From Nitrospira sp. (GTDB lineage: Bacteria; Nitrospirota; Nitrospiria; Nitrospirales; Nitrospiraceae), in the NCBI GenBank assembly GCA_033852435.1, contig JAWOMO010000022.1:91448-155447 (forward strand): a stretch of 64,000 nucleotides of DNA, written 5' to 3'. The notes under the pieces are model-generated. The model did not search any database. It worked only from the letters and a program-made list of their open reading frames with translations, and was not told where the DNA came from. Shown here in pieces: positions 1 to 58,975 of this stretch (the stretch's first letter is position 1; every line of letters begins with the position of its first letter). Position numbers and translations under genes: made by a program.

Positions 1-1173
1 ATCGGCAGCAACACGGAAAATCTGCTTCGCAGTGCGCCCTGTAACGTCCTCGTCTCGAACCGCAAGTACGTGCCGCCGATCGATACGCAAGCCGAATACA
101 CGATCGCCTGGACGGAAGAGGCTCTGCGCCGGATGGAAAAGATCCCTGTGTTCGCCCGCGGTGTTGCGAAGACCGCCATTCACCGTTATGCGATCGAAAA
201 GGGCCATACGATCATCAGCAATACGGTTGTGGATGCAGCGGTCGGCCATATCCTGCCCAAAGGCGCCATGGATGCCATGCGCGCGCTCGGTGGCAGTCTA
301 GAGGCGGCCGGCATCGACCGGGACAAGATGCAAGCGGATGACTCCGTGGCGAAGGACCTCATGGGCTCGACGCTCAGCGGCATGATGACCGAAATCGTGG
401 AAGAGAAGCCGACCGTCAGTGCAGGCACTCAGGCCTATTTGGATCGGATGACTCAGAATTACTTCGTCTGTGACGGCTGCGGCTACATCGGCAAGGGCGA
501 GACGCCAGTGAAGTGCCCGGTGTGCGGTGCGGAAGCGGCTCGGTTCAAACAGGTCGACAAGAGCATCTTTGAAGCAGCGGCGAAGGCGGAAGGCGGGGTC
601 GAAACCGATGTAGCCTACGACGATGTGCCGATGCAGTGGACGAAGGACGCGAAGGAAGCGATCCGTGCCGTGCCGGCGGGGTTCCAGCGTCGCCGCGCCA
701 AAGCCAAGATCGAAAAGACGGCACGCAAACTCGGGATGACCACGATCACGCTGGAATATGCCGCCCCCATGATCAAAGAGGCTGCTTCAGAAGACTACCA
801 GCCGATTTTCGCGAACAAGGGTGGCGGAACATCCGCAGAAGCCGAAGCGAAGTTGGCGGCCGTCAACGGCAACGGCACTCATGAGAATGGTAATGGAAGT
901 GGAAACGGCCAGGCTGAAGCCTCCCCCTATACCTGGACCACCGATGCCCAAGCGAGGTTGGATCGTGCACCGGAGGGTTTCATGCGGGATTGCACGAAGG
1001 CACTGATCATCAAGCACGCGGACAAGATCGGCACCACCCTCATCACGTTGGAAGTCGCCAACGAAGGGATCGAGCAGGCCAAGGGCTATATGGAAGAGGC
1101 CATGAAGACCGGCAACCTCAAGGACATGATCGCCAACCTTACCGGCAAAGCCAAGTCCGGGGCCAGTCACTGA
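1..1173 (+). CDS. Multidomain protein with its 5' end off-window: USP-like C-terminus, three PCP_red-like repeats and a rubredoxin-type zinc ribbon
   Basis: Frame 1 is open from nt 1 (IGSNTENLLRSAPCNVLVSN resembles a universal-stress-protein C-terminus), so the track ORF 70..1173 is an internal piece. It has three repeats of the W-T-x-x-A...P.F.R...IE..A...G...IT type (AWTEEALRRMEKIPVFARG, QWTKDAKEAIRAVPAGFQRR, TWTTDAQARLDRAPEGFMRD), as in the ChlB/BchB C-terminal PCP_red domain. A CDGCGY...CPVCG zinc ribbon and an NG-rich linker are also present. Confidence 0.75.
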   Translation: MGSNTENLLRSAPCNVLVSNRKYVPPIDTQAEYTIAWTEEALRRMEKIPVFARGVAKTAIHRYAIEKGHTIISNTVVDAAVGHILPKGAMDAMRALGGSLEAAGIDRDKMQADDSVAKDLMGSTLSGMMTEIVEEKPTVSAGTQAYLDRMTQNYFVCDGCGYIGKGETPVKCPVCGAEAARFKQVDKSIFEAAAKAEGGVETDVAYDDVPMQWTKDAKEAIRAVPAGFQRRRAKAKIEKTARKLGMTTITLEYAAPMIKEAASEDYQPIFANKGGGTSAEAEAKLAAVNGNGTHENGNGSGNGQAEASPYTWTTDAQARLDRAPEGFMRDCTKALIIKHADKIGTTLITLEVANEGIEQAKGYMEEAMKTGNLKDMIANLTGKAKSGASH

Positions 1174-2567
1174 TGGGGAAATCGCTGCCGATCCTGAACA
1201 TCCCGACTTTGCCGGGAGCGCTCGGATCGTTTCAACAACAGATCACGCAGTTCTTTACGCCCACCCCACAGGGCGAAGGCCCTTACGACGGCCGGACCGT
1301 CGACGACTTCAAGCCCTATCTCGTCGCGCTGAACCTCACCAAACGTTGCAACCTCAAATGCGACCATTGCTACCTCGACGCAACGACGAAATCCGCCGGA
1401 GGAGACGACGAACTCTCGACTGAAGAATGCTACCGGCTCATCAATCAGATCGCTGAGGTCAACAAAGGCTGCTTGCTCGTCATCACCGGCGGTGAGCCCT
1501 TGGTGCGACCCGATATCCTGGATATCGCGCGGCATGCCGTGAAGCTCGGTTTCATGGTCGTCTTCGGCACCAACGGTATGTTGATCGACGATCAGATGGC
1601 TAAAACCCTGGTGGAGATCGGCGTCATGGGGGTCGGCATCAGCATCGATTCACTCGATCCCGCCAAGCATAACTCCTTCCGCGGCGTCCCCGGAGCCTGG
1701 GAAGCAGCTATCGCCGGCATCGAAGCCAGCAAGCGCAATGGCCTCCAGTTCCAAGTCCACTTCAGCGCTCAGCCCATGAATTATCAGGAGCTTCCTTCCG
1801 TCGTGGAATGGTCCCATGGCCTCGGCGCCCGTGTCTTGAACGTCTTCTTCATGGTTTGCACAGGCCGTGGCGAAGAGCTGACCGACATCACTCCGGCGCA
1901 GTACGAAGAGGTGCTCGGCTACCTCGTCAACTGCCAGGACAATTACAAAGGCATGCTGGTCCGCGCCCGTTGTGCGCCGCATTTCAAGCGGCTGGCCTAT
2001 GAAAAGGACCCCAACTCCCCGATCACGAAGGCGACGGGCTACATGGGCGGAGGCTGCCTCGCCGGCACTAACTATGCCCGCGTGACGCCGAATGGCGAGC
2101 TGACGCCTTGCCCCTACATGCCGCTTTCAGCCGGCAATGTCCGCCAGAATAGTTTTGTCGACCTCTGGGAAAAATCGGATATTTTCAACTCGTTCCGGTA
2201 TCCTCAGCTCAAAGGTAAATGCGGTGACTGCGAATACACCGATATCTGCGGCGGCTGTCGTGCCCGTCCCTATGTGGACCATGGGGATTGGCTGGATGAA
2301 GACCAGTGGTGTCTCTACACACCAAAGGGCGGCGAAAAGATTAAAGTTGCCTTCAATATTCAAGAAGAGACCGAAGTCTCCTGGGACGAGGCCTCAGCTC
2401 TGCGGCTCAGCCGCATTCCCTATTTCCTCCGTGCGATGGTCAAGAAGGGCGTGGAAAAGCACGCCCGTGAAAACGGCATTTCGACGGTGACCATCGAGTT
2501 GATGGAAGAACTTCGCAAGAAACGGTTTGGGAACGACGCGCCGGTCTTTAAATTTGACAAGCCATGA
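1173..2567 (+). CDS. Radical SAM / SPASM-domain protein (NirJ/AhbD-like) with a C-terminal PCP_red-like repeat
   Basis: I moved the start to ATG 1173, which forms an ATGA overlap with the upstream stop. It carries CNLKCDHCY (CxxxCxxC), TGGEPL and FGTNG motifs. The Cys-rich auxiliary-cluster region is CGDCEYTDICGGCRARPY. The C-terminal SWDEASALRLSRIPYFLRAMVKKGVEKHARENGISTVTIE repeats the domain seen three times in the upstream gene. Confidence 0.85.
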   Translation: MGKSLPILNIPTLPGALGSFQQQITQFFTPTPQGEGPYDGRTVDDFKPYLVALNLTKRCNLKCDHCYLDATTKSAGGDDELSTEECYRLINQIAEVNKGCLLVITGGEPLVRPDILDIARHAVKLGFMVVFGTNGMLIDDQMAKTLVEIGVMGVGISIDSLDPAKHNSFRGVPGAWEAAIAGIEASKRNGLQFQVHFSAQPMNYQELPSVVEWSHGLGARVLNVFFMVCTGRGEELTDITPAQYEEVLGYLVNCQDNYKGMLVRARCAPHFKRLAYEKDPNSPITKATGYMGGGCLAGTNYARVTPNGELTPCPYMPLSAGNVRQNSFVDLWEKSDIFNSFRYPQLKGKCGDCEYTDICGGCRARPYVDHGDWLDEDQWCLYTPKGGEKIKVAFNIQEETEVSWDEASALRLSRIPYFLRAMVKKGVEKHARENGISTVTIELMEELRKKRFGNDAPVFKFDKP

Positions 2568-10940: not shown

Positions 10941-11945
10941 TCAGGACCCGTACAAATACAACGCATAACCTATATAAAGCACCGCACCGGCGCTCAGCAA
11001 CCAGGGCCGCCACTGGCCTGCCCAGGCTGTTTGGATGAGCAGACTGCCAGCCGCCACCACGGCAAGCACCATGGTGATCAAGGCGTTGGGAGCCAAGGTC
11101 CAATCCGTCCCCAATAACCCGATCGACACAGGAAACATGCCCTGAAACACCATGGCACCGGTCACATTGCCTACTGCTAGGCGATCTTTCTTTTGGTAGA
11201 GCCACAAGAAGCTGTTCGACATTTCCGGCAACTCCGTTGCAAGGGGGGCGATGAGCAACGCCAGAATCAAAGGAGAAATTCCGAGAAACTGTGCCGTCGA
11301 TTCGGCGGCTGTCACAAAGAGATGTGCGCCCAGAGCAAGTCCCGCAAGGCCGGCGATCGCCTGCAACGCGATCAGACCGTAAGAGGGCGTCGCTGCTTTT
11401 CGGCCAAAGAATAAAGGATCAAGCTCGCCGCCCTCGCCTTCTTCACCCGAATCGCTGAACTTCAGTTTCACATAGTAGAGATAGCAGGTCATGAGTCCGA
11501 TCGCCGCAATCACGTGCAGGAGACGAGAAGGGATAAAGGCGCAGGCCATGGCCACCGTGTACCCGAACGCAAAAAACGAGAGATCGACCGTGACATCTTT
11601 ATAGTTCAGCCGGAACGATCCGCCCCGCTTCCCCAGTCTGGAGAAGAGGAGAAGGAGCAGGGCCAAAATCGGGACCACGAGGGTGCTGAGCATGAACGGT
11701 GCTCCGAGGATCGCGCCGACACCCACTTCGGCCTCCTGACGACTGGTTCCGAAGAAAATCGCCACAATAGGGATCGAGGTTTCCGGCAAGGTCGTGCCGA
11801 TAGCCGCCAAGACGCTGCCGACCGCTCCCTCCGAGAGATTCAGCCGCTTCCCCAGCCATTCAATCGCGTTCGTAAAGAGGGTGCAGGCACCGAGCGTGAC
11901 GGCGACGGAGGCGATGAACAAGAGACTATAGAGCAGGAGGGTCAC
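10941..11945 (-). CDS. Na+/Ca2+ exchanger family (CaCA/YrbG-like) membrane protein
   Basis: It is polytopic, with two alpha-repeat-like motifs (IGTTLPETSI and LATELPEMSN). The GTG start overlaps the larC stop (GTGA). Confidence 0.7.
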   Translation of the reverse strand: MTLLLYSLLFIASVAVTLGACTLFTNAIEWLGKRLNLSEGAVGSVLAAIGTTLPETSIPIVAIFFGTSRQEAEVGVGAILGAPFMLSTLVVPILALLLLLFSRLGKRGGSFRLNYKDVTVDLSFFAFGYTVAMACAFIPSRLLHVIAAIGLMTCYLYYVKLKFSDSGEEGEGGELDPLFFGRKAATPSYGLIALQAIAGLAGLALGAHLFVTAAESTAQFLGISPLILALLIAPLATELPEMSNSFLWLYQKKDRLAVGNVTGAMVFQGMFPVSIGLLGTDWTLAPNALITMVLAVVAAGSLLIQTAWAGQWRPWLLSAGAVLYIGYALYLYGS

Positions 11946-13144
11946 GAATGGTCCTTCGCGGGCCAGCGCCCCTTGGCATAGGCGAGCGCTGCTTCCTCGA
12001 GAACCGCTTTGACCGGCCGGCCGGTCCGCTCCGCGATGCGTTGACAGTCCGCATATTCGGGGGCGGCTTTCGTTACCGTTTCATCCACTGCCGCGATTTT
12101 CATCCGAACCTCACCGCCGCGAATCTTCACCGACGTGAATCGCCGCGGAAGAATGTGCCGTTCCACTTCTTGTATCCGAACACCCAATGCCGTCGTCTCT
12201 TCGAACAGCACGTTGAGCAGCGGATGAAGGCCGGTGGGAGCGCCAAGGCAGGTCAGTATGATCCCGGGCCTCCCGCGTTTCATGATGACGGGCGTCAGCG
12301 TAACATCGAGCGCCCCGGATCGAAACAGGCGCTCCATAATATGCTCATACGTTTGAGGGTTGAGATCGTCGAGATTCGTCTCGATCTGCAAGACCGTATC
12401 GCGCTCCCTGCCCCCTCGCGACGAATCGCGCGAGAGAAACACGCGCAACACATTCGGCCAGCCTGCCGGATTCGCATCACCAGCCCCGTATCCGACAGAT
12501 GTCGGCCGCAGCAATGGCATGGGCCCGAACTCTGTCGTCAGCGTCTGCAACAGCGCAAGACCGGTCGGCGTCGTCAGTTCGCAGGCTGGACCGGCGCTGT
12601 AGATGGGAAGCCCTTTCGCCAAGATGGCCACGGCAGGCCCCGGCGCTGGCAGAATGCCGTGCGCCGATCGAAGCGTCCCCGCCCCTACATTCACGGGAGA
12701 AGCGGTCACCCTGGTGACGCCCAACAGTTCGCAGCAGATCAACCCGCCGACGATATCAACGAACGAATCCAAGACGCCGACTTCATGAAAATGCACATGA
12801 TCCTTCCCAACGCGATGGGCCTTCCCTTCAGCTTCCGCGAGACGTTCGAACACGGCGCGGCTTTGCTCCTTGATCTTCGGTGAAAGGCGACTGGCAGACA
12901 GGATCTTGCGAATGCGTGTGAGCGAAAGCGGATGACGCAGGCCGGCCCCAATCACCACATCAACTTTGGTCGCGGAAATCCCGCCGCGCTGGACGCGCCG
13001 TTTTCGCAACGTGAATCCTGCCACACCCAGCCGCTTGAGCCCCTTTACCAGATCCGGAAAGGGCGCACCGGCGTCTACAAGCGCGCCAAGCGTCATGTCT
13101 CCGCTGATTCCGGAAAAGCAGTCAAAATGGAGATGCAGGCCCAT
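11942..13144 (-). CDS. larC: Nickel-pincer cofactor biosynthesis protein LarC (DUF111 family)
   Basis: The N-terminus HLHFDCFSGISGDMTLGALVDAG and a length of ~400 aa are typical of LarC/UPF0272. Confidence 0.85.
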   Translation of the reverse strand: MGLHLHFDCFSGISGDMTLGALVDAGAPFPDLVKGLKRLGVAGFTLRKRRVQRGGISATKVDVVIGAGLRHPLSLTRIRKILSASRLSPKIKEQSRAVFERLAEAEGKAHRVGKDHVHFHEVGVLDSFVDIVGGLICCELLGVTRVTASPVNVGAGTLRSAHGILPAPGPAVAILAKGLPIYSAGPACELTTPTGLALLQTLTTEFGPMPLLRPTSVGYGAGDANPAGWPNVLRVFLSRDSSRGGRERDTVLQIETNLDDLNPQTYEHIMERLFRSGALDVTLTPVIMKRGRPGIILTCLGAPTGLHPLLNVLFEETTALGVRIQEVERHILPRRFTSVKIRGGEVRMKIAAVDETVTKAAPEYADCQRIAERTGRPVKAVLEEAALAYAKGRWPAKDHS

Positions 13145-13297
13145 TGATCTTCTTCCTTCGCCTCATTAGGCCGCGCCATCTTACCCAAGGCCGGTCAGAA
13201 CGGCAATGCATTGACAGCCGGAGAACGCTATGTTATCCCCACTGCGGCAATTGGTTCCTCACGCCTGCTGACAACCGTAAGGCCTCTAGACAGCCGG

Positions 13298-13849
13298 ATG
13301 TTCTTCACAACTCTCTCCAGCGTATCGCCATCGACGGATTTCCGCGTTCGACATCTTCATTGGCGATGGACCGTTCCCATCCTGGCTATTGCGCTCCTGC
13401 TACCAGCCGCTTCATCAGCAAAGACCAAGCAGAACAGGGCCCCGCGCCCTGAGCCGGAACTGAAGGTTCTGGAACTCAAGGTTAGCCCGAACCCCTATAC
13501 CGTTTCAGCGGGCTCCCTGGAATTCTCAGCTCTGGTTCAACTCCCGATGGAGTTGAACGGCGCAACACTGTTAGAAGTGTCGTCGCTCGTCTCTTCTCCC
13601 TCGAAAACTTCGATCCGTTTCCTCTCAATACGCAAACCACTGGAACCGCATTCCACACCCGAGACCAGCACTGACCGCCCGAAGATCTCCGTCGTCCTGG
13701 CATGGGATGGAATGGATCACAAGAAAACACCGGCCGAGGCGGGACTCTACCAGTACGAATTGCGGGCCAAGCTCCTGACGAACGGTGAAAAGGGACCCCG
13801 TACACTGATGGTGTCCTGGCCGAAACGCGGAACCTTGGAAGTGAAGTAA
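13298..13849 (+). CDS. Exported hypothetical protein (Ig-like fold suspected)
   Basis: It has a signal/anchor segment (WTVPILAIALLLPAASSA) and a beta-rich C-terminus (GLYQYELRAKLLTNGEKG). ATG 13298 is preferred over the TTG at 13211. Confidence 0.5.
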   Translation: MFFTTLSSVSPSTDFRVRHLHWRWTVPILAIALLLPAASSAKTKQNRAPRPEPELKVLELKVSPNPYTVSAGSLEFSALVQLPMELNGATLLEVSSLVSSPSKTSIRFLSIRKPLEPHSTPETSTDRPKISVVLAWDGMDHKKTPAEAGLYQYELRAKLLTNGEKGPRTLMVSWPKRGTLEVK

Positions 13850-13859
13850 CTGATAGCTG

Positions 13860-14681
13860 TCAGCTCTCCGCTCTCCGCTTGATCTTCGTCTTATCCTTCG
13901 TCTTTAGTGATCTGTGATGGGTAACGGCTATCCGTCCTCCCAGCACGTTGATGCGGTGTGCAAGACAGCCGGCGCCGAACCCGTTGTCGATGTTCATGAC
14001 CCCCACCCCAGCCGCACAGGAATTCAGCATCGTCAGCAACGCAGCCAGTCCGCCGAAACTCGCGCCATAGCCTCGACTCGTCGGGACCGCCACCACCGGC
14101 ACATCCACCAACCCCCCGACGACGCTCGGCAATACCCCGTCCATCCCGGCGACGACCACAATCACGTTGGCCTCGGTCAGTCGATGGTGACGATCCAATA
14201 GTCGATGAATGCCGGCAACACCGACATCGTAGAGCGTCTCGACGCGGCTGCCCATGACCGCCGCACTGATTCGCGCCTCTTCTGCGACCGGAACGTCGGA
14301 GGTTCCGGCCGTAATCACCAAGACATGCCCTTGAAGCGGTCGCTTGGGATCGCGAATTGCCACGAGCCGTGCGTCTTCGTGGTACTGCGCCCGGCCATCA
14401 ATCCGTTTGATAACCGAAGCAACCTGGCGTGTGGCTCTCGTGGCCAGAAATGGCCGGTGATGTTTGAGCAGTGCCTTGGCGATCCTTTGTATCTGAGTGA
14501 GTGTCTTTCCCTCGCACAAGATCACCTCTGGAAACCCCTGGCGAAGCGACCGGTGATGATCAAGCGACGCAAATCCCAGATCCTCGAAAGGCAGCGAGCG
14601 GAGTTGTTCCAAAGCCTTCGTTACTGAGAGGGTGCCGCTCCGCACATTGGTCAGCAAACGTTCGAGGCGCGCCGGATTCAT
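13860..14681 (-). CDS. larB: Nickel-pincer cofactor biosynthesis protein LarB (PurE-like carboxylase/hydrolase)
   Basis: It has LDHHRSLRQGFPEVILCEGKT and the AIR-carboxylase-like VITAGTSDVPVAEEA motif. ATG 14681 forms an ATGA overlap with the gpsA stop. Confidence 0.85.
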   Translation of the reverse strand: MNPARLERLLTNVRSGTLSVTKALEQLRSLPFEDLGFASLDHHRSLRQGFPEVILCEGKTLTQIQRIAKALLKHHRPFLATRATRQVASVIKRIDGRAQYHEDARLVAIRDPKRPLQGHVLVITAGTSDVPVAEEARISAAVMGSRVETLYDVGVAGIHRLLDRHHRLTEANVIVVVAGMDGVLPSVVGGLVDVPVVAVPTSRGYGASFGGLAALLTMLNSCAAGVGVMNIDNGFGAGCLAHRINVLGGRIAVTHHRSLKTKDKTKIKRRAES

Positions 14682-16015: not shown

Positions 16016-16720
16016 ATGAACACAAAACGCACGGTCAACAGAGTCCTGGGAGCCACCTTCCTCACCATCATGCTTCACGCGATCCTATCGCCATCGATGA
16101 CGCAGGCGGAGTCGTATGTCGCAGGAACATTCGGGGTGACCATGCCTCAAAGCTTGAGCAACGGTGTAGTAACCCAAGATGGATTAGGCGGTCTTGATAT
16201 TTCAGATCAGTCGCTAAAAAGTTCCGTCAACGTTGGCGCAAAGCTCGGACATTATTTCTCCAAAGCCAGGTGGATAGGGGTGGAAACAGGATTGTCCTAT
16301 ACCACGCCTCATATTAAAGAAGGGTCGCTGACATTTACAGGGCCCGGTGGCTCCCAAACTTCACCCACGTTTTCAGGCATACACCAACGCATCATCATAT
16401 GGGATGTGGTAACCCTCATGCTGCGTTATCCCGGCAATCGCTTCCAACCCTATGTCGGAGTTGGTCCAGCGCTCTTCTTTGCCAGTCTCAATGGTCCGAC
16501 AGCCCCTCCCGGGCAATCGGCGACTGCAATAGGACTGAACGCCGAAGCAGGGGCGCGCTATTTTATTACTCGACACTGGGCCCTCTTTGGGGAAGGCGTG
16601 TACAATAGAGCCCGGCTGAGTTACAGTTCCAATGATAGTAACCCTGCTGCAGATCCGTTTGGATTTCGCGCGACATACAGCGCTTTCACGGTAAGTATTG
16701 GTGTCAGTTATCACTTCTAG
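16016..16720 (+). CDS. Outer-membrane beta-barrel protein (OmpW/opacity-porin-like)
   Basis: GGGAG precedes the ATG. The signal peptide ends at MTQAES. Amphipathic beta segments alternate, and the C-terminus is aromatic (GVSYHF). Confidence 0.7.
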   Translation: MNTKRTVNRVLGATFLTIMLHAILSPSMTQAESYVAGTFGVTMPQSLSNGVVTQDGLGGLDISDQSLKSSVNVGAKLGHYFSKARWIGVETGLSYTTPHIKEGSLTFTGPGGSQTSPTFSGIHQRIIIWDVVTLMLRYPGNRFQPYVGVGPALFFASLNGPTAPPGQSATAIGLNAEAGARYFITRHWALFGEGVYNRARLSYSSNDSNPAADPFGFRATYSAFTVSIGVSYHF

Positions 16721-16790: not shown

Positions 16791-17141
16791 ATGAAAATCT
16801 GTCCATCCTGTCAGCGTGAACTTCCTGAGATCTATCGTTATTGCACCGAGTGCGGCAGCAGCCTGGATGGCAGATCTCAGCCTACACCCGCTAAATCGGA
16901 CGCCACCCCGGAGGCGCTTAACCTCCAGATTCTCTACGGCATGGTGGCGATGCTCGTGCTCGCATTGCTGTTCCCGCCGTGGGAAACGCCGCCGTCGCAA
17001 GCCCCTGAATTTCTCGGACTGCACTTCATTCTCTCGCCGCCAACTCCCGAGGCCGTCGTCAGCCGGCTCCTGATCACCATCGAACTGGTCACGATCGCCA
17101 TCGCCGGTCTGTACGGATCGTTTCTCTTTCGAAGTCGCTAG
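16791..17141 (+). CDS. Zinc-ribbon membrane protein
   Basis: It has an N-terminal CPSCQ...YCTECG zinc ribbon followed by two hydrophobic helices. Confidence 0.6.
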   Translation: MKICPSCQRELPEIYRYCTECGSSLDGRSQPTPAKSDATPEALNLQILYGMVAMLVLALLFPPWETPPSQAPEFLGLHFILSPPTPEAVVSRLLITIELVTIAIAGLYGSFLFRSR

Positions 17142-17161: not shown

Positions 17162-17971
17162 TCAATCCAACGCCAGCGTCAGGCACTTTGCCGATCCGCC
17201 GGACTTGAGAAATTCATCAAGGGGAACGGCATGGGGCAGGTATCCACGCGAGACAAGCCACGCCTCCGTGTCGGGACAATCAGTCGGCAGCACGACATGC
17301 TTCCCGACGCATACTGCATTGCAGGCGAAGGCGAGTGCTTCGCGTTCAGGAACGGCGAGTCGTTGCATCGGGCCGATTCGGTCCGCAATAGCTTCCTGAC
17401 CATAGCGGTCGAAGGCGGACGGAAAATAGAGCAGTTCGCCACCGCTCAGGGGACAAAAACAGGTGTCCAAGTGGTAGAAGCGGCTATCCACTAGCTCTAG
17501 GGGGATGATCTCCCGATGAAACCATTCACTCAGGAGCGGAAAGGCTCGAATGTCCGTCCGCTGCCTATAGCCGCCGAACCAGCAGTCTTGAAATCCCAGC
17601 AGATCACCAGCACCCTCGAAAAGATGATCCCGCTCAAGCGTGAGAATCTCATAGCCGTGCAGACGAAACCAATCTTCGAAATGCGCCTCTTCACGCTGCC
17701 GCTCGGGATAACGGAATCGGCTCGGTACAGCCTGCGCCCCAACCACCACTCCCGCGTTCGCTGTAAACACGAGGTCCGGCAATCCTTGGACAGGCCTCAT
17801 CCGTTCAAGGCCCACTCCCACGTCCTGTTCCAAGACCTGCATTAATCGACGCCACTGGTGCGTCGCACGCTCACGATTCACGGCATTGGAGCGATGCATC
17901 CATGGATTGATTTCGTATTCGACACCGAAGAAGTCCGGAGGACAGACGAGCAGCCGGCTCATGGCTTCCAC
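17162..17971 (-). CDS. Guanidino-group-modifying enzyme (amidinotransferase/arginine dihydrolase-like fold)
   Basis: It has FYHLDTCFCPL and the C-terminal catalytic-Cys motif GGSAKCLT, typical of the DDAH/ADI/amidinotransferase superfamily. The alternative ATG 17962 gives an ATGA overlap with the upstream gene. Confidence 0.65.
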   Translation of the reverse strand: MEAMSRLLVCPPDFFGVEYEINPWMHRSNAVNRERATHQWRRLMQVLEQDVGVGLERMRPVQGLPDLVFTANAGVVVGAQAVPSRFRYPERQREEAHFEDWFRLHGYEILTLERDHLFEGAGDLLGFQDCWFGGYRQRTDIRAFPLLSEWFHREIIPLELVDSRFYHLDTCFCPLSGGELLYFPSAFDRYGQEAIADRIGPMQRLAVPEREALAFACNAVCVGKHVVLPTDCPDTEAWLVSRGYLPHAVPLDEFLKSGGSAKCLTLALD

Positions 17972-19200
17972 CCCAATTCACGCGCGATCTCTCGCAGAAA
18001 CGACGCGGCGTCCATCACGAGCCCGACCGCTTGAAAACTTCCTCGATCCGCGAGTTTCGTCGGGACCGAGGGATTGATGTCCACACACACGGTCGGGACC
18101 GACGCCGGCAACAGGTTTCCGGTCGCTACGGCATGCAACGTCGAGGCAACCAGTAAGGCCAAGCCCGTGCCTGGAATCGCTTTCCGCATGGCTTCTTGAG
18201 CCTGAATCGAATCCGTGATCACGCCCGGAAGCGGTCCATCGTCCCTGATCGTTCCCGCCATCACCACTTGCACAGCCTGTCTCACGCAAGCAGCCATGAT
18301 GCCCTGCTTCACCAGCCCGGATTCCACCGCTTTCTCAATGCTCCCGATTGCGCGGATGCGATTGATCGTTCGCAAGTGATGTTCGTGCCCATGGGGAAGC
18401 GGCTGGCCGGCCTGATGCGCATAACCCAGCGATGTGCCGTACAGTTCCATTTCCAGATCATGCGCCGCCAGTGCATTCCCGCAGAACAAAATTTGGACAT
18501 ACTCGTTCTCGATCAGCCAAGCCAAGGCATCCCGACCGCCAGCGTGAACGATCGCCGGCCCCCCTGAGAACAGGATCCGGCAATCAGCTTGCCCTTCGCG
18601 ATAGCCGGACCGCAGTTGCGTCATTCGTGTGGCGATATCGTGGATCATGTGCCCGTGCGGCCGCTCGACCGACACCTGCGACTCCATGAAGCTGAAGACG
18701 TCGCGCTTGCGCGGTCGCTGAAGGGGAATGACCCGCACGCCTTGTCGGCCGATTACAACGGACTCGCCGCACTTTACCGAGGCCATCGGGACGGCTCTGG
18801 CCACGCCTCGCTCAGGCTCGACCACGATACCCAGATCCATTTCGATCAGATCCACATTGATCCATGATCCCCGCAGCCGCACCTGTGTCGACAGATGGGT
18901 GGTCGCATAAAACTCATCGGGGAAGACCCCGTCCGCCGGTGCCGGCTGGAATCGGCAGTCCGATTCGCGTTCCACCGAAGCGCCATGAGGCTGAATCGCT
19001 TCCAGGATTGATTTGAGCTGGGCGGGGGATTCTGTTTGCACCACTATCTTGACCCGAGAGGGATCCTGGCGCGTCTTTCCGATCTGAACCTCTTGCAGGT
19101 CGAACGAGCCGCCCATCGAAAGAATCCGATCCAGCACCTTCGCCAAGATCAACGAATCGATGATGTGGCCTTGGAGAAGCACGGTCTCTTGATACACCAT
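17959..19200 (-). CDS. TIGR00300-family LOR/SDH-domain protein (ornithine cyclodeaminase-like, tentative)
   Basis: The N-terminus LLQGHIIDSLILAKVLDRI..GG.F and a length of ~410 aa match the archaeal/cyanobacterial LOR/SDH conserved-domain family as I recall it. Confidence 0.6.
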   Translation of the reverse strand: MVYQETVLLQGHIIDSLILAKVLDRILSMGGSFDLQEVQIGKTRQDPSRVKIVVQTESPAQLKSILEAIQPHGASVERESDCRFQPAPADGVFPDEFYATTHLSTQVRLRGSWINVDLIEMDLGIVVEPERGVARAVPMASVKCGESVVIGRQGVRVIPLQRPRKRDVFSFMESQVSVERPHGHMIHDIATRMTQLRSGYREGQADCRILFSGGPAIVHAGGRDALAWLIENEYVQILFCGNALAAHDLEMELYGTSLGYAHQAGQPLPHGHEHHLRTINRIRAIGSIEKAVESGLVKQGIMAACVRQAVQVVMAGTIRDDGPLPGVITDSIQAQEAMRKAIPGTGLALLVASTLHAVATGNLLPASVPTVCVDINPSVPTKLADRGSFQAVGLVMDAASFLREIARELGWKP

Positions 19201-23401: not shown

Positions 23402-24154
23402 ATGCGCCTGACGATTCTTGGTTCCGGCACGAACGTCCATCCGACGCGAGCGGCGGCCGGTTACATCGTGCGGACCGATCAGACCTTGCTGCTCGACTTC
23501 GGACCCCGAACACTCATGAATCTGATGCGGACCGGCGTGAATCGCCATCGTATCGAGTACATTCTGTTCTCGCATTACCACAGCGACCATTTCGCCGACT
23601 TCATTCCTTTCTTTTTCGATGCGGTATTCTATTCGAACTATATCGGGCATAGACCCGATCTCACCCTCATCGGACCACGAGGAACCACACGGCTCTTCCG
23701 CACCCTTATAGCCACACTGCCGGGGTTCAAGAAGGCCCGCTTCAAGAGCCGTTTCAGAGAGGTGTCCGATCGAGCATTTCATATCGGGAAGACGTCCATT
23801 GTCCCGCGGACTGTCACCCACAGTCCCGGCCTGCATTGCATCGGCTATCGCATCGAGTACGGCGGGCGGGCCATCGCCTATTCCGGCGATGCGCAGTACT
23901 GCCACAATCTGGTGCCGCTTTGCGGTGACGTCGATCTTGCCGTGCTGGATTGCTCGTTCCCGGCAAACAAGCCGGGCCCTGGACATCTGCATGCCGGTGA
24001 ATGCGGGCAAGTGGCAGCGGAGGCAGGAGTCGGCCGCCTGGTACTCTCGCATTTCTATCCGATTGCGGAACGGTACAACGTGAAGGAGCAGGCAGGAGAA
24101 TCGTTCGGCGGACCGATCACGCTTGCCGGCGATCGAATGACGATCAAAATCTGA
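23402..24154 (+). CDS. MBL-fold metallo-hydrolase (RNase Z-like)
   Basis: It has the HYHSDH (HxHxDH) motif, downstream GD/H ligands, and a length of ~250 aa. Confidence 0.8.
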   Translation: MRLTILGSGTNVHPTRAAAGYIVRTDQTLLLDFGPRTLMNLMRTGVNRHRIEYILFSHYHSDHFADFIPFFFDAVFYSNYIGHRPDLTLIGPRGTTRLFRTLIATLPGFKKARFKSRFREVSDRAFHIGKTSIVPRTVTHSPGLHCIGYRIEYGGRAIAYSGDAQYCHNLVPLCGDVDLAVLDCSFPANKPGPGHLHAGECGQVAAEAGVGRLVLSHFYPIAERYNVKEQAGESFGGPITLAGDRMTIKI

Positions 24155-48842: not shown

Positions 48843-49646
48843 TTACTTAAGGCCTAGCACATCCATCATGTCGTACAGCCCAGGCGGCTGCCTGACGACC
48901 CATCGTGCCGCCCGCAACGCACCACGCGCGAAGGTGTCGCGACTGCTGGCCCGATGAGTCACTTCGATCCGTTCTCCCATCCCGCCGAACAGAATGGTGT
49001 GGTCGCCGACAATATCCCCGGCACGAATCGTTTGAATCCCAATCTCCTGTTTCTTTCGTTCTCCAATCAGACCTTTTCGCGCGTAGACCCCGACTTGATT
49101 GAGATCTCGATTCACAGCCCTGGCCAATACCTCCGCGATCTTGAGAGCCGTCCCGCTCGGCGCATCTTTTTTCAGCCGGTGGTGTGCCTCAATAACCTCA
49201 ATGTCGTACTCGTCCCCCAATGTCCTGGCCATCTCGCTAATGACCTTGTAAATCAGGTTTACGCCCACGCTCATGTTGGGAGAAAAGACGCAAGGCACTT
49301 GCCGGGCTAGCGATTTCAGCTCTTCGAGTTCCGCCGCGGCGAAACCCGTCGTTCCGATCACCATGGCGCGCCGGTGCTGCGCCACCACCCGTAGATGATT
49401 CAGAGTCGCTTCCGGAGAGGAAAAATCAATAACGACTTCTCCCCGTTCCAGGAGCGTCGAAAGATCCTCCGTTATCGGGACGCCGGCCTTGCCACAGCCC
49501 GCCGTCTCGCCGGCATCCTCACCCAACGCATGGTGGCCCTTGCCCTCGATCGCGCCCGCCAATGTGAGGGCGGTGGAATCCTTGATCAAGGCGACCAACC
49601 GGCTGCCCATTCGACCCGCAGCACCAGCGACAATAACTTTGATCAT
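48843..49646 (-). CDS. dapB: 4-hydroxy-tetrahydrodipicolinate reductase
   Basis: It has IKVIVAGAAGRMG, EAHHRLKKDAPSGTA and a length of 267 aa. It lies downstream of dapA. Confidence 0.95.
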   Translation of the reverse strand: MIKVIVAGAAGRMGSRLVALIKDSTALTLAGAIEGKGHHALGEDAGETAGCGKAGVPITEDLSTLLERGEVVIDFSSPEATLNHLRVVAQHRRAMVIGTTGFAAAELEELKSLARQVPCVFSPNMSVGVNLIYKVISEMARTLGDEYDIEVIEAHHRLKKDAPSGTALKIAEVLARAVNRDLNQVGVYARKGLIGERKKQEIGIQTIRAGDIVGDHTILFGGMGERIEVTHRASSRDTFARGALRAARWVVRQPPGLYDMMDVLGLK

Positions 49647-49670
49647 GCAGAACCGCTCGCTTCCGATCGA

Positions 49671-50543
49671 CTAGATCAGCTTCATGTCCTTCAGCACGCG
49701 CGTTAACTGGGCTTTCGTGTCGGCCCCCATCGCACAGAGTGGCAGCCGCAACTCCGGATCGATTTTCCCCATCATGCCCAAGGCTTCCTTCACCGGGATG
49801 GGGTTCGTTTCATAGAACAGCGCCGCGAAAAGGGGCGACAACATGAAGTGCAGCTTGCGCGATTCCTCGACCCGACCTGTCAAAAACGTACTGACCAACT
49901 GCGCCATCTCCTTCGGAACCAGATTCGCCGCCACTGTGATGACCCCTTTTGCCCCGACCGCCATCATAGGGAGGGTCAATGCGTCATCACCGGCCAGGAC
50001 CGTTATCCGCTCACCGCAGATCTGTGCAATTTCCGACGCTTGCTGGACCGAACCGCTTCCTTCCTTAATGCCCACGATGTTCTTCATACCGCACAATCGC
50101 GCGACGGTCGCGGGCAACATATTTACGCCGGTCCGGCCGGGAATATTATAGAGGATCTGCGGAATCTCGACGGACTCCGCGACCGCCTTGTAATGTCGAT
50201 ACAGCCCTTCTTGGGTCGGCTTATTGTAATAGGGCGTGATCAGCAGCGCCCCGTCCGCACCGGCCTCTTTGGCATGCCTGGTCAATGAGATAGCTTCGTC
50301 GGTGCTGTTGGAGCCCGTCCCGGCAATGACCGGGACACGTCTCCTGGCGACTTCGACGGCCAGCTTGACCACGCGATGATGTTCCTCGTGCGTCAGGGTT
50401 GCCGATTCACCAGTGGTGCCGCAGGGGACAATCCCATTCGTTCCATTGGCAATCTGCCATTCGATCAAATCGCCAAAAGCCCGCTCATCAAGCTGGCCCT
50501 TCCTGAACGGCGTGACGATGGCAACCAACGACCCAGTAAACAT
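49671..50543 (-). CDS. dapA: 4-hydroxy-tetrahydrodipicolinate synthase
   Basis: It has GTTGESATLT, YNIPGRTG, and the IVGIKEGSG Schiff-base Lys region. Confidence 0.95.
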   Translation of the reverse strand: MFTGSLVAIVTPFRKGQLDERAFGDLIEWQIANGTNGIVPCGTTGESATLTHEEHHRVVKLAVEVARRRVPVIAGTGSNSTDEAISLTRHAKEAGADGALLITPYYNKPTQEGLYRHYKAVAESVEIPQILYNIPGRTGVNMLPATVARLCGMKNIVGIKEGSGSVQQASEIAQICGERITVLAGDDALTLPMMAVGAKGVITVAANLVPKEMAQLVSTFLTGRVEESRKLHFMLSPLFAALFYETNPIPVKEALGMMGKIDPELRLPLCAMGADTKAQLTRVLKDMKLI

Positions 50544-50560
50544 GGGAACTCCTTTACCGA

Positions 50561-51823
50561 CTACTCGAGAAATGCGGGAACCGTTTCACCTCTAACCAGA
50601 TCTTCGTAAGTTTCTCGCGCCTTGATGATATGGATCTCGCCGTCTTTGATCAGCACCTCAGGCACCCGCGGCCGCGAGTTGTAGTTGGACGCCATGACAA
50701 ACCCGTAGGCTCCCGCGCTCATGACGGCAAGCAGATCGCCGGGCCTGACCTCCGGGAGCGTGCGATCTTTCGCCAGGAAGTCGCCGGACTCACAGACCGG
50801 CCCGACTACATCGACCGAGTGTCTGGGGCGCTGCAACAGGGATTCGAAGACGGGACGGATCTCGTGATAGGCGCTGTAGAGGCTCGGCCTGATCAAGTCG
50901 TTCATCGCAGCATCCACGATAATGAACCGCTTCGCTTCGCCGACCTTTTCGTAGAGCGCTTTGGTCACGAGGATGCCCGCATTCCCCACGATTACGCGTC
51001 CCGGCTCCATCACCAGCGTGAGTTTCAAGTCCCGCACGAGCGGTGAAATGGCGTCGGACAGATCTTGCGGCAATGGCGGCTTCTCGTCGCTGTAGGTGAT
51101 CCCGAGCCCGCCTCCGATGTTCAGATATTGAATGTTGATGCCCTGCTCCTTCAGTGCCCCTATCAGCGTAATCACCTTCTTTAAGGATTCAACGAAGGGC
51201 GTGACCTCTGTCAGTTGCGATCCGATATGCGCATGCACGCCGACGACCTCGATATGCCCGAGTGAGGACGCCAGCTTGAACTCCTCCAAGGCGCGATCGG
51301 CGGCGATCCCGAACTTGCTCTTCTTCAAGCCGGTCGAGATGTAGGGATGCGTCTTGGGATCGATGTCGGGATTGATCCGCAATGCCACGCGGGCTTTCTT
51401 TCCGACCGAAGCGGCCACATCGTTGATCGCGTGAATCTCCGCCGACGACTCGACGTTGAACATGAGGATGTCCGCCTTCAGCGCGTCACGAATCTCCTCC
51501 GCATTCTTACCGACGCCGGCGAACACGATTTTGGAGGAGGGCACACCGGCCTTCAGCGCACGAAACAATTCACCGCCGGACACGATATCGACGCCGCTTC
51601 CTTCCTTCGCCATAAGACGAAGGATCGCCAGATTCGAATTGGCTTTCATCGCAAACGCGATGATGTGCGGGATGTTCTTAAACGCGCTGTCGTACGCGCG
51701 GAAATGCCTGGTCAACGTGGCGTGACTATAGATGTAGCAGGGCGTGCCAACTTCTTTGGCAATCCGGCTGACGGGCACCTGTTCACAATAGAGCTCGCCC
51801 TGGCGATATTCGAAATTATGCAT
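50561..51823 (-). CDS. lysA: Diaminopimelate decarboxylase
   Basis: It has AFAMKANSN (PLP Lys), GGGLGI, CESGD, EPGR and a length of 420 aa. Confidence 0.95.
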   Translation of the reverse strand: MHNFEYRQGELYCEQVPVSRIAKEVGTPCYIYSHATLTRHFRAYDSAFKNIPHIIAFAMKANSNLAILRLMAKEGSGVDIVSGGELFRALKAGVPSSKIVFAGVGKNAEEIRDALKADILMFNVESSAEIHAINDVAASVGKKARVALRINPDIDPKTHPYISTGLKKSKFGIAADRALEEFKLASSLGHIEVVGVHAHIGSQLTEVTPFVESLKKVITLIGALKEQGINIQYLNIGGGLGITYSDEKPPLPQDLSDAISPLVRDLKLTLVMEPGRVIVGNAGILVTKALYEKVGEAKRFIIVDAAMNDLIRPSLYSAYHEIRPVFESLLQRPRHSVDVVGPVCESGDFLAKDRTLPEVRPGDLLAVMSAGAYGFVMASNYNSRPRVPEVLIKDGEIHIIKARETYEDLVRGETVPAFLE

Positions 51824-53726
51824 CCTGAAAATCCTCGCTCAGCATTTCGAGACCCGCAAGGGAGAAGCCTTGCAGCGAGGTCTCGAAGGCGTCCTTGAAC
51901 TTGCGATAGCGCACCTTGACGTGCGGCACAGCGGCCTTGATGGCCTCCGAATCGATCAAGGCCTTCAGCGCATCTGGCGCTGCCAGTTTCAGGTGCTCGA
52001 AATTGACGATGACGTCCAATTTCGCGTTCTCGGCCGCCTCTTTGATCCGCTTGATGAGTTCCTGAACATTCAGCCGGTCCAGCGCACCCTCGAGATCGAC
52101 AAAGAGGGCGGCGAACTTATCATGCCGTTTGGCTTTGATGTTCAGGGTGAGATTTTCTGTCGACAGCGTCTTCGGGTCTAAGCGTTGCTTCAAGGCATGC
52201 AACGCACTGGGAATGAGTTGATCCCTGTCCAACACAGGGAGCTTGGCTTGCAGATTTTTCAGCACAGTCGCCAAGGGGGAAAGGGTTCCCTTGGGACAGC
52301 TCCGCTTAACCAATTTTCTGAATTCCCGGTTCATTTCCCATCGGGCCACCAACCGCTGCTTGGTGCCGGAAAGCCGATACCAGATGTTGGGCAACGAATA
52401 GAATTGATGGTTGGCCCAATGGAATCCCTCTTGTAGCTGTTCCGGCGTCATGCGACTCGGCTGAAACACAACGTGTTTGCCGTCGTACTTCGACCAATCC
52501 TTGTCGAAGATCCGGCCGGCGTTGTTATAGCGGTCGAAGAGCGCGGTTCCCGGCAACGGCGTGAGAACGTTGAAGTAGGCCAACTCCACTTGATTTTTGG
52601 TCAAAAAATCAACGGCACGTTCAAACACCGCTTCGTCGTCGTTGTCGAACCCGAACACTATGCCAGGATTCACCATGATCCCGTAATCGTGGAACATTTT
52701 GATCTCTTGGGCAAACTTTTTGACGCGGTTGAACGGCTTATTGGTTTCATCGAGGCAGTCTTCATCCAACGATTCCATCCCGACGAATACGGAGACGCAG
52801 CCACTCTCCGCCGCTAACTTGACCATCTCCTCATCATCCGCCAGAAACAACGTCGACTGGCAGCCCCATTTGAGCTTGAGCGGCTTCAATGCCGTCCAGA
52901 GCTCGCGGCAATAGGCGCGGTTGCTGTTGTGCAGGTCGTCGACAAACGCCACGATGCTGCCGTCTTCAATGCCAACTCGAATGCGGAGACTCAGGATGAA
53001 GGCCTTCCAGAGCGGTTCGTCTCGAATACGCTCAACCAATTCGCTGCGAATCCAACGTTGCACGTTCTGGAGTTCCGTGACGACTTCCTCCACCGGCCTG
53101 CGCCGTGTGGTCTTGCCATTGAAGGGCGACACGCTGCAAAACTCACAATCGAAGTGACAACCCCTGGTCGTAAAACTGCATTGCCTCGTCATATAGGCAT
53201 CGGGGCTCAGCAATTCGACGCGCGGGCTCTTGTAATTCTCCAACGCCGGAAACGACGTCATTTTGTACATCCGCTGCATTTGACCCGCCTCGTAGTCTGC
53301 GACTAGTTGCGGCCACAAATCTTCTGCCTCGCCGCATACAATCGCGTCCGCATACTGTAAGGCTTCGTCCGGGCAGTAAGTGGGGTGGACGCCGCCCATC
53401 ACAACGGTTTTCCCTCGCTTGCGAAACTCCTTGGCGATCTCATAGGCGCGGGGCGCATAACAGGTCATGATCGAAAGGCCGACCATATCGCAGGGATAGT
53501 CGAAATCGATGTCCTGCACCGCTTCGTCGACCAAATCGACGGTCCAATGCTCCGGCGTATAGGCGGCGATCGTCGGGAGGCTCAACTTCGGGAACCAGAC
53601 CGCCCGTCGCTCCGACGCCGTCAGGTGGTACTGGCTGTTGCGAGGATAGGGATCCACCAGCAGCAACCGTTTGCCCGCGGTCTGCCGGGGCAAATGGCCT
53701 TGTCGCATTGGTTGAATCAGTTGCAT
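51816..53726 (-). CDS. B12-binding-domain radical SAM protein (DUF4070-type) with a STAS-like C-terminal extension
   Basis: It has an N-terminal cobalamin-binding-like Rossmann region (LLLVDPYP...VGLSIMTCYAPRAYEIAKEFRKRGKTVVMGGVHPT) and RGCHFDCEFCS (CxxxCxxC). The region FNVLTPLPGTALF...DWSKYDG is DUF4070-like. The last ~140 aa (FVDLEGALDRLNVQELIKRIKEAAENAKLDVIVNFEHLKLAAPDALKALI) resemble an anti-sigma-antagonist/STAS fold. It overlaps lysA by 8 nt. Confidence 0.8.
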   Translation of the reverse strand: MQLIQPMRQGHLPRQTAGKRLLLVDPYPRNSQYHLTASERRAVWFPKLSLPTIAAYTPEHWTVDLVDEAVQDIDFDYPCDMVGLSIMTCYAPRAYEIAKEFRKRGKTVVMGGVHPTYCPDEALQYADAIVCGEAEDLWPQLVADYEAGQMQRMYKMTSFPALENYKSPRVELLSPDAYMTRQCSFTTRGCHFDCEFCSVSPFNGKTTRRRPVEEVVTELQNVQRWIRSELVERIRDEPLWKAFILSLRIRVGIEDGSIVAFVDDLHNSNRAYCRELWTALKPLKLKWGCQSTLFLADDEEMVKLAAESGCVSVFVGMESLDEDCLDETNKPFNRVKKFAQEIKMFHDYGIMVNPGIVFGFDNDDEAVFERAVDFLTKNQVELAYFNVLTPLPGTALFDRYNNAGRIFDKDWSKYDGKHVVFQPSRMTPEQLQEGFHWANHQFYSLPNIWYRLSGTKQRLVARWEMNREFRKLVKRSCPKGTLSPLATVLKNLQAKLPVLDRDQLIPSALHALKQRLDPKTLSTENLTLNIKAKRHDKFAALFVDLEGALDRLNVQELIKRIKEAAENAKLDVIVNFEHLKLAAPDALKALIDSEAIKAAVPHVKVRYRKFKDAFETSLQGFSLAGLEMLSEDFQDA

Positions 53727-53785
53727 CAGTCCCTCCTCCAGTTCAACATCGGTGCAAGATGAATAGTCATAACATTTTCCCGCGC

Positions 53786-54013
53786 TCAGCGCGTACCGAA
53801 CGGTCGTACCGGCGGCAAAACCACATCTTGGCCCTGCGGTTCACTTGCCGCCTGCGATTCAGCCGCTTCACGTTGTTGCGCTTCGAGCGCATCACGCCTC
53901 TTCTGAAACTCGACCGTCCGGGACACTCCAACATCTTCGGGAGCCATCGGCGGCCCCACAACTCCGCAGGCTGCCACCAGCCCCAGAACCAACACGACCG
54001 CCAGACTTCTCAC
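53786..54013 (-). CDS. Small lipoprotein, LptM/YifL-like
   Basis: The lipobox LVAACG is followed by VVGPPMAP (compare the CG.KGPL..P pattern of LptM/YifL, which sits next to dap/lys genes in proteobacteria). It is 75 aa and overlaps the argH stop by 4 nt. Confidence 0.6.
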   Translation of the reverse strand: MRSLAVVLVLGLVAACGVVGPPMAPEDVGVSRTVEFQKRRDALEAQQREAAESQAASEPQGQDVVLPPVRPFGTR

Positions 54014-57601: not shown

Positions 57602-57619
57602 GGTATTAGAGCCTATCGA

Positions 57620-58831: not shown

Positions 58832-58975
58832 GGCAGACGTATCCCCTTGTAAAGTAAGGGAAGCTAGCACAGGCACTACAGTGAAAGCAACTTGTTACCG
58901 GTCAGCGAATCCCAACGGAAGGTTTCGATTCCTTCTTTACTCGTTCAGCCCCGATGATGTGATAGTCTCTGAACG

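Follow-up and report, generated by a model that had tools for sequence, protein, structure and literature searches.

Overlapping genes for a putative two-protein counterpart of the ArgZ/AgrE arginine-to-proline pathway in Nitrospira

No amino acid is richer in nitrogen than arginine, and Nitrospira is known to draw organic nitrogen from urea, from cyanate and, in comammox strains, from guanidine. The locus described here, two overlapping genes within a 64-kb stretch of Nitrospira DNA (the whole stretch analysed, referred to as the window), raises the question of whether a nitrifier can take arginine through ornithine to proline using two separate proteins that resemble the halves of the cyanobacterial ArgZ/AgrE enzymes. 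Judging from protein families and gene arrangement, we consider it likely that the pair is a two-protein version of that pathway. The enzymes themselves are of known kinds; what is new is their architecture and their host.

An initial sequence-only reading had placed two open reading frames at 17959-19200 and 17162-17971, overlapping by either 4 or 13 nt, and inspection of the sequence bears out both the frames, which are on the minus strand, and the overlap. The junction reads ...TGG AAG CC[ATGA] GCC..., which gives an overlap of 4 nt when the dihydrolase gene is started at its ATG and of 13 nt when it is started at an alternative GTG at position 17971 (17162-17971, 269 aa). The shorter overlap is probably correct, since 266 aa is the length of nearly all dihydrolase homologues and also of the protein in the contig's public gene call. 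An identical 4-nt overlap was found in 24 Nitrospirota loci, and the ATGA arrangement suggests that the two genes are translationally coupled. Given family E-values of 1e-84 to 1e-138 for the two proteins in profile searches, and orthologues in at least 597 species-level genomes, both frames are real genes rather than chance occurrences. Around the pair, sites resembling promoters and terminators were not commoner than in shuffled sequence, and no Rfam matches or tRNA genes were found in the window.

Table 1. Features of the window discussed in the text, with positions counted from its first nucleotide.
Feature	Position	Strand	Remarks
TIGR00300-family ornithine cyclodeaminase, 413 aa	17959..19200	-	ATG start; first gene of the pair
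Putative arginine dihydrolase, ArgZ N-domain type, guanidino-modifying superfamily, 266 aa (ATG)	17162..17962	-	Second gene of the pair
ATGA stop/start overlap of the cyclodeaminase and dihydrolase genes	17959..17962	-	Direct sequence reading
larB, nickel-pincer cofactor biosynthesis, pyridinium carboxylase/hydrolase	13860..14681	-	NF033503 287 bits, cut-off 175
larC, nickel-inserting cyclometallase, LarC1 and LarC2 in one 400-aa protein	11942..13144	-	TIGR00299 and NF052512
CaCA-family (Na_Ca_ex) membrane protein	10941..11945	-	PF01699 93.9 bits
argD	57620-58876		Confirmed
argF	56630-57601		Confirmed
argG	55422-56633		Confirmed
argH	54010-55422		Confirmed

The product of the first gene scores 460.6 bits (cut-off 410.8) against TIGR00300, an NCBIfam equivalog presently named 'ornithine cyclodeaminase, nickel-pincer nucleotide-dependent', and covers profile positions 5-403 of 407, which upholds the family membership originally proposed for it. 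Orthologues from N. moscoviensis, Gemmataceae, and Chloroflexi score 475-546 bits on the same model. Its Pfam layout comprises PF04455, then the first region and then the Rossmann domain of the ArgZ-like C-terminal part (E 5e-33, 4e-29, and 9e-94), the ArgZ-like domains being PF21571 and PF21570. PDB matches include 3c2q (E 5e-90) and residues 287-691 of AgrE 6lrh (E 2e-88).

The smaller protein shares approximately 50% identity with the ArgZ/AgrE arginine dihydrolase domain, aligning to ArgZ residues 8-270, and carries the C-terminal catalytic motif of a guanidino-modifying enzyme (KSGGSAKCLTLALD) that had been noticed at the outset. Its PDB matches are led by ArgZ 6jv0 (E 5.5e-75) and AgrE (E 1.2e-73), and no match to ADI or AstB was obtained at E 1e-3 or better. 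Seven residues (D63, N69, R88, E116, H164, D166, and C260) are invariant in 50 sequences, namely the window protein and those of 49 loci; N69, E116, H164, and C260 align with ArgZ N71, E118, H168, and C264, which we take to be the catalytic residues, with numbering checked against the alignment.

Profile scores for this protein have to be read against those of authentic relatives. The best-scoring model is NF052232 (Arg_dihydro), yet the score of 282.9 bits lies below the curated cut-off of 450, such that the expected ArgZ-type assignment stands with respect to the best model and falls short with respect to the threshold. On the same model, fused cyanobacterial proteins reach 515-524 bits and a fused Spartobacteria protein 444 bits, and the model appears to be tuned to fused proteins. 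The protein also lies below the cut-offs of all three dimethylargininase models (NF045659, Mtb type, 237.5 against 300 bits; NF045658, 25.3 against 450; NF045660, 65.2 against 340), and its Pfam DDAH_eukar match, at 33.7 bits barely over the gathering score, reflects the shared fold only. Because genuine fused cyanobacterial ArgZ N-domains reach 233-246 bits on the Mtb 'DDAH' model, the 237.5 bits obtained here represent family background. A DDAH assignment was consequently rejected, based on (i) this calibration, (ii) the ranking of Arg_dihydro as the best model, and (iii) PDB matches to true DDAHs at E 1e-6 or weaker versus 5e-75 for ArgZ, the last of which also disposes of the initial concern that the protein might group with DDAHs. 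The protein belongs to a large, mostly uncharacterised family in which the other named member is the mycobacterial 'dimethylargininase', and it is missed by every NCBIfam equivalog model, which amounts to an annotation gap.

Conservation of the pair was counted over 74 species-level genome loci with enough flanking sequence. In 48 of these the cyclodeaminase gene directly precedes the dihydrolase gene on the same strand; in 3 the two are fused in ArgZ order, and in 23 the dihydrolase gene occurs alone. Since these 23 loci carry no adjacent cyclodeaminase gene, the two genes are not obligately linked; no informative conserved neighbour (e.g. another ornithine-using enzyme) was shared among them. 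Split pairs occur in Nitrospirota, Planctomycetota, Chloroflexi, Verrucomicrobiota, and Bacteroidota. The co-conservation anticipated by the sequence-only reading is apparent both in these arrangements and in the pairwise identities of the two proteins, which correlate with r = 0.95 overall and 0.90 outside Nitrospirota. Fused proteins account for about 5 of the best 150 cluster representatives of the family and, as stand-alone proteins also dominate the loci, the cyanobacterial fusion looks like a special case, which suggests that the two-gene form is the common state. The description of the pair as a 'split' ArgZ/AgrE is thus apt in that both halves match and their order is reversed, while the direction implied by 'split' is perhaps backwards. 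The neighbour-joining tree computed for 218 members of the family, which serves for grouping and neither roots the family nor dates the fusion, is star-like with long branches; Nitrospirota form one group in it, and lone and paired Planctomycetota sequences are intermixed. The closest homologues and loci are those of Nitrospira or Nitrospiraceae, in agreement with the nitrifier-type host that had been guessed. The same operon is present in cultured N. moscoviensis, at about 440.7-442.7 kb of NZ_CP011801.1, which makes the pathway directly testable. Our literature search returned no biochemical data for any split-type member, and nothing relevant on Nitrospira with arginine dihydrolase, ornithine cyclodeaminase, or cyanophycin.

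Public annotations of the Nitrospira dihydrolase proteins read 'arginine deiminase-related' or 'DDAH', and correspond to an alternative that we regard as unlikely, in which the small protein is a deiminase- or dimethylargininase-type enzyme forming citrulline from arginine or methylarginines, and the cyclodeaminase independently makes proline from biosynthetic ornithine. The TIGR00300 enzymes of methanogens serve proline biosynthesis in this way, acting alone, and the window cyclodeaminase is slightly nearer to the archaeal protein 3c2q from Methanococcus maripaludis (45% identity over 332 residues) than to the cyanobacterial fused enzymes (39-40%). The position matching ArgZ N71 is nevertheless retained in the small protein, and 4-nt coupling to an ornithine-consuming enzyme across phyla makes sense only with an ornithine-producing partner, as an enzyme yielding citrulline would gain nothing from such coupling. 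The Arg_dihydro score lies under its cut-off with the Mtb dimethylargininase model merely 45 bits lower, and the two models give equal scores for other clades of the family; the Mtb model is, however, uninformative here, as genuine ArgZ N-domains score alike on it.

For the favoured two-protein version of the ArgZ/AgrE pathway, we infer the substrate, products, cofactor loading, complex formation, and physiological role as follows. The 266-aa enzyme is predicted to attack L-arginine at its guanidino group in two hydrolytic steps, via a covalent Cys260 thiouronium intermediate, yielding L-ornithine, 2 NH3, and CO2. The 413-aa enzyme, a predicted nickel- and cofactor-dependent cyclodeaminase, would then form the ring of L-proline from L-ornithine and set free a third NH3. 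Hydride would be taken up and given back transiently by a non-covalently held nickel-pincer (adenine di)nucleotide, a part played by NAD+ in classical cyclodeaminases. Coupling through the ATGA overlap would allow the two proteins to be made together, possibly as a complex resembling the fused enzyme, and the cofactor would be supplied by LarB and LarC, encoded 2.5-5 kb downstream, along with LarE encoded elsewhere. AgrE is reported to convert arginine to proline, CO2, and 3 NH4+ (PMC8262935), and the two ammonia per arginine originally proposed must accordingly be raised to three for the complete route to proline.

The genomic surroundings bear on what such a route might be used for. The complete argD-F-G-H biosynthetic operon recognised in the sequence-only reading is present in the window, the neighbours of the pair are housekeeping genes (truD, gpsA), no arginine transporter or catabolic regulator adjoins the pair, and no PutA-type gene was detected among the window open reading frames scanned, which were a part of all frames. 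These features are in keeping with a second alternative, in which the same biochemistry has an anabolic or homeostatic role, making proline or draining excess arginine from internal pools rather than supplying ammonia or using external arginine. Proline is costlier to make via arginine than from glutamate, however, and we judge this role to be quite improbable.

Genes for nickel-pincer cofactor synthesis and the nickel-pincer dependence of TIGR00300 enzymes did not figure in the earlier reading. A TIGR00300-type cyclodeaminase is reported, in PMC13524815 citing Desguin 2025, to bind a nickel-pincer adenine dinucleotide non-covalently. Intact larB and larC genes lie downstream of the pair, and this synteny is kept across Nitrospira, including cultured N. 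moscoviensis. The ATG of larB overlaps the gpsA stop codon by 4 nt (ATGA), with a public gene call of 273 aa, and the larC product scores 187.3 bits on TIGR00299 (LarC1, cut-off 90) and 137.2 bits on NF052512 (LarC2, cut-off 50). In 14 Nitrospira loci larC is followed by a gene for a CaCA-family protein, and in the window these two genes share 4 nt (GTGA) between the larC stop and the GTG start; the protein may be a cation or nickel transporter, and its gene possibly belongs to the pair/lar system. No lar genes were found within 10 kb of the pair in Nitrospirota outside the Nitrospira group or in other phyla, so the linkage could be plain conserved synteny. That the cyclodeaminase is non-functional or NAD+-using in this lineage, with an incomplete nickel-pincer pathway and with larB and larC serving another enzyme, is very improbable: the LarE PP-loop motif (SGGxDS) was indeed found neither in the six frames of the window nor in 80 related loci with their flanks, but the search took in 64 kb of this genome and larE frequently lies elsewhere, no LarA was found as an alternative client in family scans of about 55 window open reading frames, and the cyclodeaminase is under selection, as indicated by 62-76% identity across Nitrospirota and 62 invariant residues over at least 5 phyla.

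A broader proposal, which we put forward tentatively and consider rather doubtful, is that Nitrospira (canonical nitrite oxidisers as well as comammox organisms) use the module to free the three removable nitrogens of arginine and direct the ammonia to their own or their partners' ammonia oxidation, as they do with urea and cyanate, and that the larB-larC-CaCA cluster is there mainly for the cyclodeaminase. If true, nitrogen scavenging by nitrifiers would be nickel-limited in a new way. A pathway yielding three ammonia from each arginine would in any case extend the known organic nitrogen sources of Nitrospira. The locus also extends the recently reported nickel-pincer cyclodeaminases to Nitrospirota, Planctomycetota, and other phyla.

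Comparison with known systems places the pair among four groups of proteins. The presence of larB and larC recalls the LarA lactate racemase system; unlike that system, the window holds no LarA, and the likely client has a different fold and, as reported in the paper cited above, binds the cofactor non-covalently in the form of an adenine dinucleotide. The small protein shares the guanidino-modifying fold and Cys-His catalytic core with the mycobacterial 'dimethylargininase' and with true DDAHs, although the Pseudomonas, Streptomyces, and mammalian DDAHs are very far from it (25-65 bits). The cyclodeaminase has the same three-domain layout as stand-alone 3c2q but differs from the archaeal stand-alone proteins in being bacterial and in having its gene coupled to an arginine dihydrolase-like gene. 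The closest parallels are ArgZ (Sll1336, Synechocystis) and AgrE (Alr4995, Anabaena), which provide the best solved structures for both window proteins; homology extends over the full length of both domains, the catalytic Cys, His, Glu, and Asn positions are alike, and the predicted chemistry is the same. On the bifunctional ArgZ model NF052231, which calls for both domains on one chain of about 700 aa and a score of 1025 bits or more, the 266-aa protein corresponds to residues 1-269 (280.7 bits) and the 413-aa protein to residues 284-692 (361.8 bits). Relative to ArgZ/AgrE, the window system consists of two polypeptides with the cyclodeaminase gene placed first, its dihydrolase scores 283 bits on NF052232 against 515-524 for the cyanobacterial proteins, its cyclodeaminase shares only 39-40% identity with the fused enzymes, and its host is a chemolithotrophic nitrifier rather than a cyanobacterium.

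The pair consists of a cyclodeaminase gene followed on the same strand by a putative dihydrolase gene, and the ORF coordinates, the GGSAKC motif of the dihydrolase and the 4- or 13-nt overlap reported in the sequence-only reading were all confirmed, with the junction reading TGG AAG CC-ATGA-GCC. The overlap with the upstream stop is 4 nt from the ATG start and 13 nt from the GTG start; given that dihydrolase homologues are nearly all 266 aa, as is the contig's public gene call, the 4-nt overlap is favoured. GC content of the pair (0.56-0.60) is in line with the remainder of the window, and its close relatives are all from Nitrospira or Nitrospiraceae. Overall, its interpretation as a two-gene counterpart of the fused cyanobacterial enzymes ArgZ and AgrE is supported, with three corrections.

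Features of the pair, its surroundings and other parts of the window
Feature	Positions	Strand	Length	Remarks
Radical SAM/SPASM protein	990-2567	+	525 aa	C-terminal PCP_red domain
CaCA/Na_Ca_ex family membrane protein	10941-11945	-		GTG start overlaps larC stop (GTGA)
larC, complete	11942-13144	-		LarC1 187 bits, LarC2 137 bits
ORF between larB and larC	13211-13849	+		public call: 100-aa gene, 13547-13849
larB	13860-14681	-		287 bits, cut-off 175
gpsA stop/larB start overlap	14678-14681	-		ATGA
Outer-membrane beta-barrel protein	16016-16720	+	234 aa	converges on dihydrolase gene
Zinc-ribbon protein	16791-17141	+	116 aa	hydrophobic segments; converges on dihydrolase gene
Dihydrolase, ATG start	17162-17962	-	266 aa
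Dihydrolase, GTG start	17162-17971	-	269 aa
Cyclodeaminase	17959-19200	-	413 aa
Metallo-beta-lactamase-fold protein	23402-24154	+		adjoins MarR regulator
argD, argF, argG, argH, radical SAM gene, lysA, dapA, dapB	48843-58876	-		in this order, one strand
B12-binding radical SAM protein	51816-53726	-	636 aa

Along its full length, the dihydrolase matches the arginine dihydrolase domains of its closest structures, ArgZ (6jv0, E 5.5e-75) and AgrE (E 1.2e-73), whereas true DDAHs match at E 1e-6 at best. Its top NCBIfam models were Arg_dihydro (NF052232; 282.9 bits, under the cut-off of 450), the N-terminal third of bifunctional ArgZ (280.7 bits), and a mycobacterial 'dimethylargininase' (237.5 bits, cut-off 300). 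These models were calibrated with control proteins: fused cyanobacterial proteins (loci L076 and L080) scored 515-524 bits on Arg_dihydro and 233-246 on the mycobacterial model, and split-type orthologues (N. moscoviensis, Gemmataceae, Chloroflexi) 282-287 and 238-254 bits, respectively. Because genuine fused ArgZ proteins score alike on the mycobacterial model, that score is family-wide background and uninformative on function. A DDAH identity was therefore rejected, and the protein is probably of the ArgZ type, as had been proposed. Other clades of the family show the same model-score behaviour, and the split-type dihydrolases form a subfamily captured by no equivalog model. The catalytic residues of ArgZ, which we take to be C264, H168, E118, and N71 in agreement with the structure-alignment numbering, correspond to C260, H164, E116, and N69 of the window protein; these, and likewise D63, R88, and D166, are invariant in it and 49 genomic homologues.

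The upstream protein exceeds the TIGR00300 cut-off (460.6 versus 410.8 bits), which bears out its earlier assignment; NCBIfam now names this model 'ornithine cyclodeaminase, nickel-pincer nucleotide-dependent'. In its domain layout, PF04455 precedes the two ArgZ-like C-terminal Pfam domains. Its best solved relatives are Methanococcus maripaludis 3c2q (E 5e-90, with 45% identity across a 332-residue alignment) and the C-terminal two-thirds of AgrE (E 2e-88) and ArgZ (E 3e-78).

At least 597 loci encoding dihydrolase relatives turned up in a pattern scan that covered a single genome for each species; the best 80 were fetched, and 74 of these had sufficient upstream DNA. A TIGR00300 gene lay directly upstream on the same strand in 48 of the 74, the two were fused in ArgZ order in three (Nostocales, Leptothoe, and a Spartobacteria genome), the dihydrolase stood alone in 23, and split genes in ArgZ order occurred in none. 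All informative Nitrospirota loci had the split pair, 24 of them with the exact 4-nt overlap, and it was also present in Planctomycetota, Chloroflexi, a UBA2219 bacterium, Chthoniobacterales, Chitinophagaceae, and Thermodesulfovibrionia. The pair is thus co-conserved, and pairwise identities of the two proteins across loci are closely correlated (r = 0.95 overall, 0.90 without Nitrospirota), which fits inheritance as a unit, with shared phylogeny also contributing.

The description of the pair as a 'split' ArgZ/AgrE holds for its two genes and reversed order, but probably not for the implied direction of change, as fusion is likely the derived state. Among the top 150 cluster representatives (50% identity), most are stand-alone proteins of 255-300 aa and about five are fused, and the window cyclodeaminase is 46-52% identical to other split ones versus 39-40% to fused ones; these figures point to the two-gene form as the common state, with the fusion in cyanobacteria as a lineage-specific event. 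The neighbour-joining tree of the dihydrolase family is too star-like to prove this direction.

The 23 lone-dihydrolase loci (L032, L034, L035, L037, L041-L045, L048-L051, L056, L057, L066, L067, L069-L071, L073, L077, and L078) are mostly from Planctomycetota, have no cyclodeaminase within 10 kb, and share no informative neighbour. Since lone and paired dihydrolases are mixed together in the tree, the partner may be elsewhere in the genome or lost. Six family members from the representative search (P0126, P0127, P0129, P0150, P0131, and P0151) have one or two copies of PF04455 (~75 aa), the N-terminal domain of the cyclodeaminase, fused ahead of the dihydrolase domain without the remainder of that enzyme. 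PF04455 accordingly accompanies the dihydrolase in three different arrangements, and may serve as a module for docking or regulation.

According to a 2026 paper (PMC13524815, citing Desguin 2025), an ornithine cyclodeaminase, recently shown to use non-covalently bound nickel-pincer adenine dinucleotide, was discovered via genomic association with LarE. The sequence-only reading had missed this cofactor and the nearby larB and larC. LarE and LarA were not found within the 64-kb window, including by family scans; larB and larC provide at least a portion of the cofactor pathway in this genome. Nitrospira genomes, among them N. moscoviensis, share a conserved gene order of truD, cyclodeaminase, dihydrolase, gpsA, larB, small ORF, larC, CaCA, and pdxA, with an outer-membrane protein gene on the opposite strand before gpsA in some loci. 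No lar genes occur within 10 kb of the pair in more distant Nitrospirota or other phyla, so that the linkage may be mere inherited synteny. The beta-barrel gene keeps its position in many Nitrospira loci, though not in every one. The glycerol-3-phosphate dehydrogenase gene gpsA directly precedes larB in other Nitrospira loci too and, judging from the overlapping stop and start, appears translationally coupled to this nickel-pincer biosynthesis gene. The ORF between larB and larC matches nothing in Pfam or NCBIfam and contains a hydrophobic stretch resembling a signal sequence. A CaCA gene follows larC in 14 Nitrospira loci, and its product may transport nickel or another cation, tied to cofactor synthesis.

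In the proposed mechanism, the Cys260/His164 core of the dihydrolase would convert arginine to ornithine, two NH3, and CO2. The cyclodeaminase would oxidise the ornithine alpha-amine, with hydride passing to the nickel-pincer cofactor, and attack by the delta-amine, ammonia loss, and hydride return would yield proline. Two ammonia per arginine had been suggested; the overall yield to proline would be three, as reported for AgrE (PMC8262935). Translational coupling would provide the two proteins in matched amounts, and by analogy with the fusion they may form a physical complex. Substrate, products, cofactor form, and physiological role of the pair are predicted.

The neighbours of the pair are housekeeping genes, and no transporter or regulator adjoins it. 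The argD-F-G-H operon pointed out earlier is present in the window, but lies 35 kb off, and nothing ties it to the pair. The module may serve internal arginine recycling, proline making, or ammonia supply for nitrification. Elsewhere in the window, the B12-binding radical SAM gene sits oddly within the amino-acid biosynthesis run, and the radical SAM/SPASM protein is unusual in its combination with PCP_red, named for a protochlorophyllide reductase subunit. The metallo-beta-lactamase-fold protein has a precomputed Anti-Pycsar Apyc1 (PF23023) match in the public gene table and is probably an ordinary MBL hydrolase.

Literature searches found no paper connecting Nitrospira with this arginine-to-proline pathway, and a few Nitrospira homologues already bear the JGI label 'arginine dihydrolase'. 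The host is ecologically important, and N. moscoviensis offers a ready means of testing the pathway. Both enzymes belong to known, catalogued families; what is new is an architectural variant, in Nitrospira, of a known pathway.
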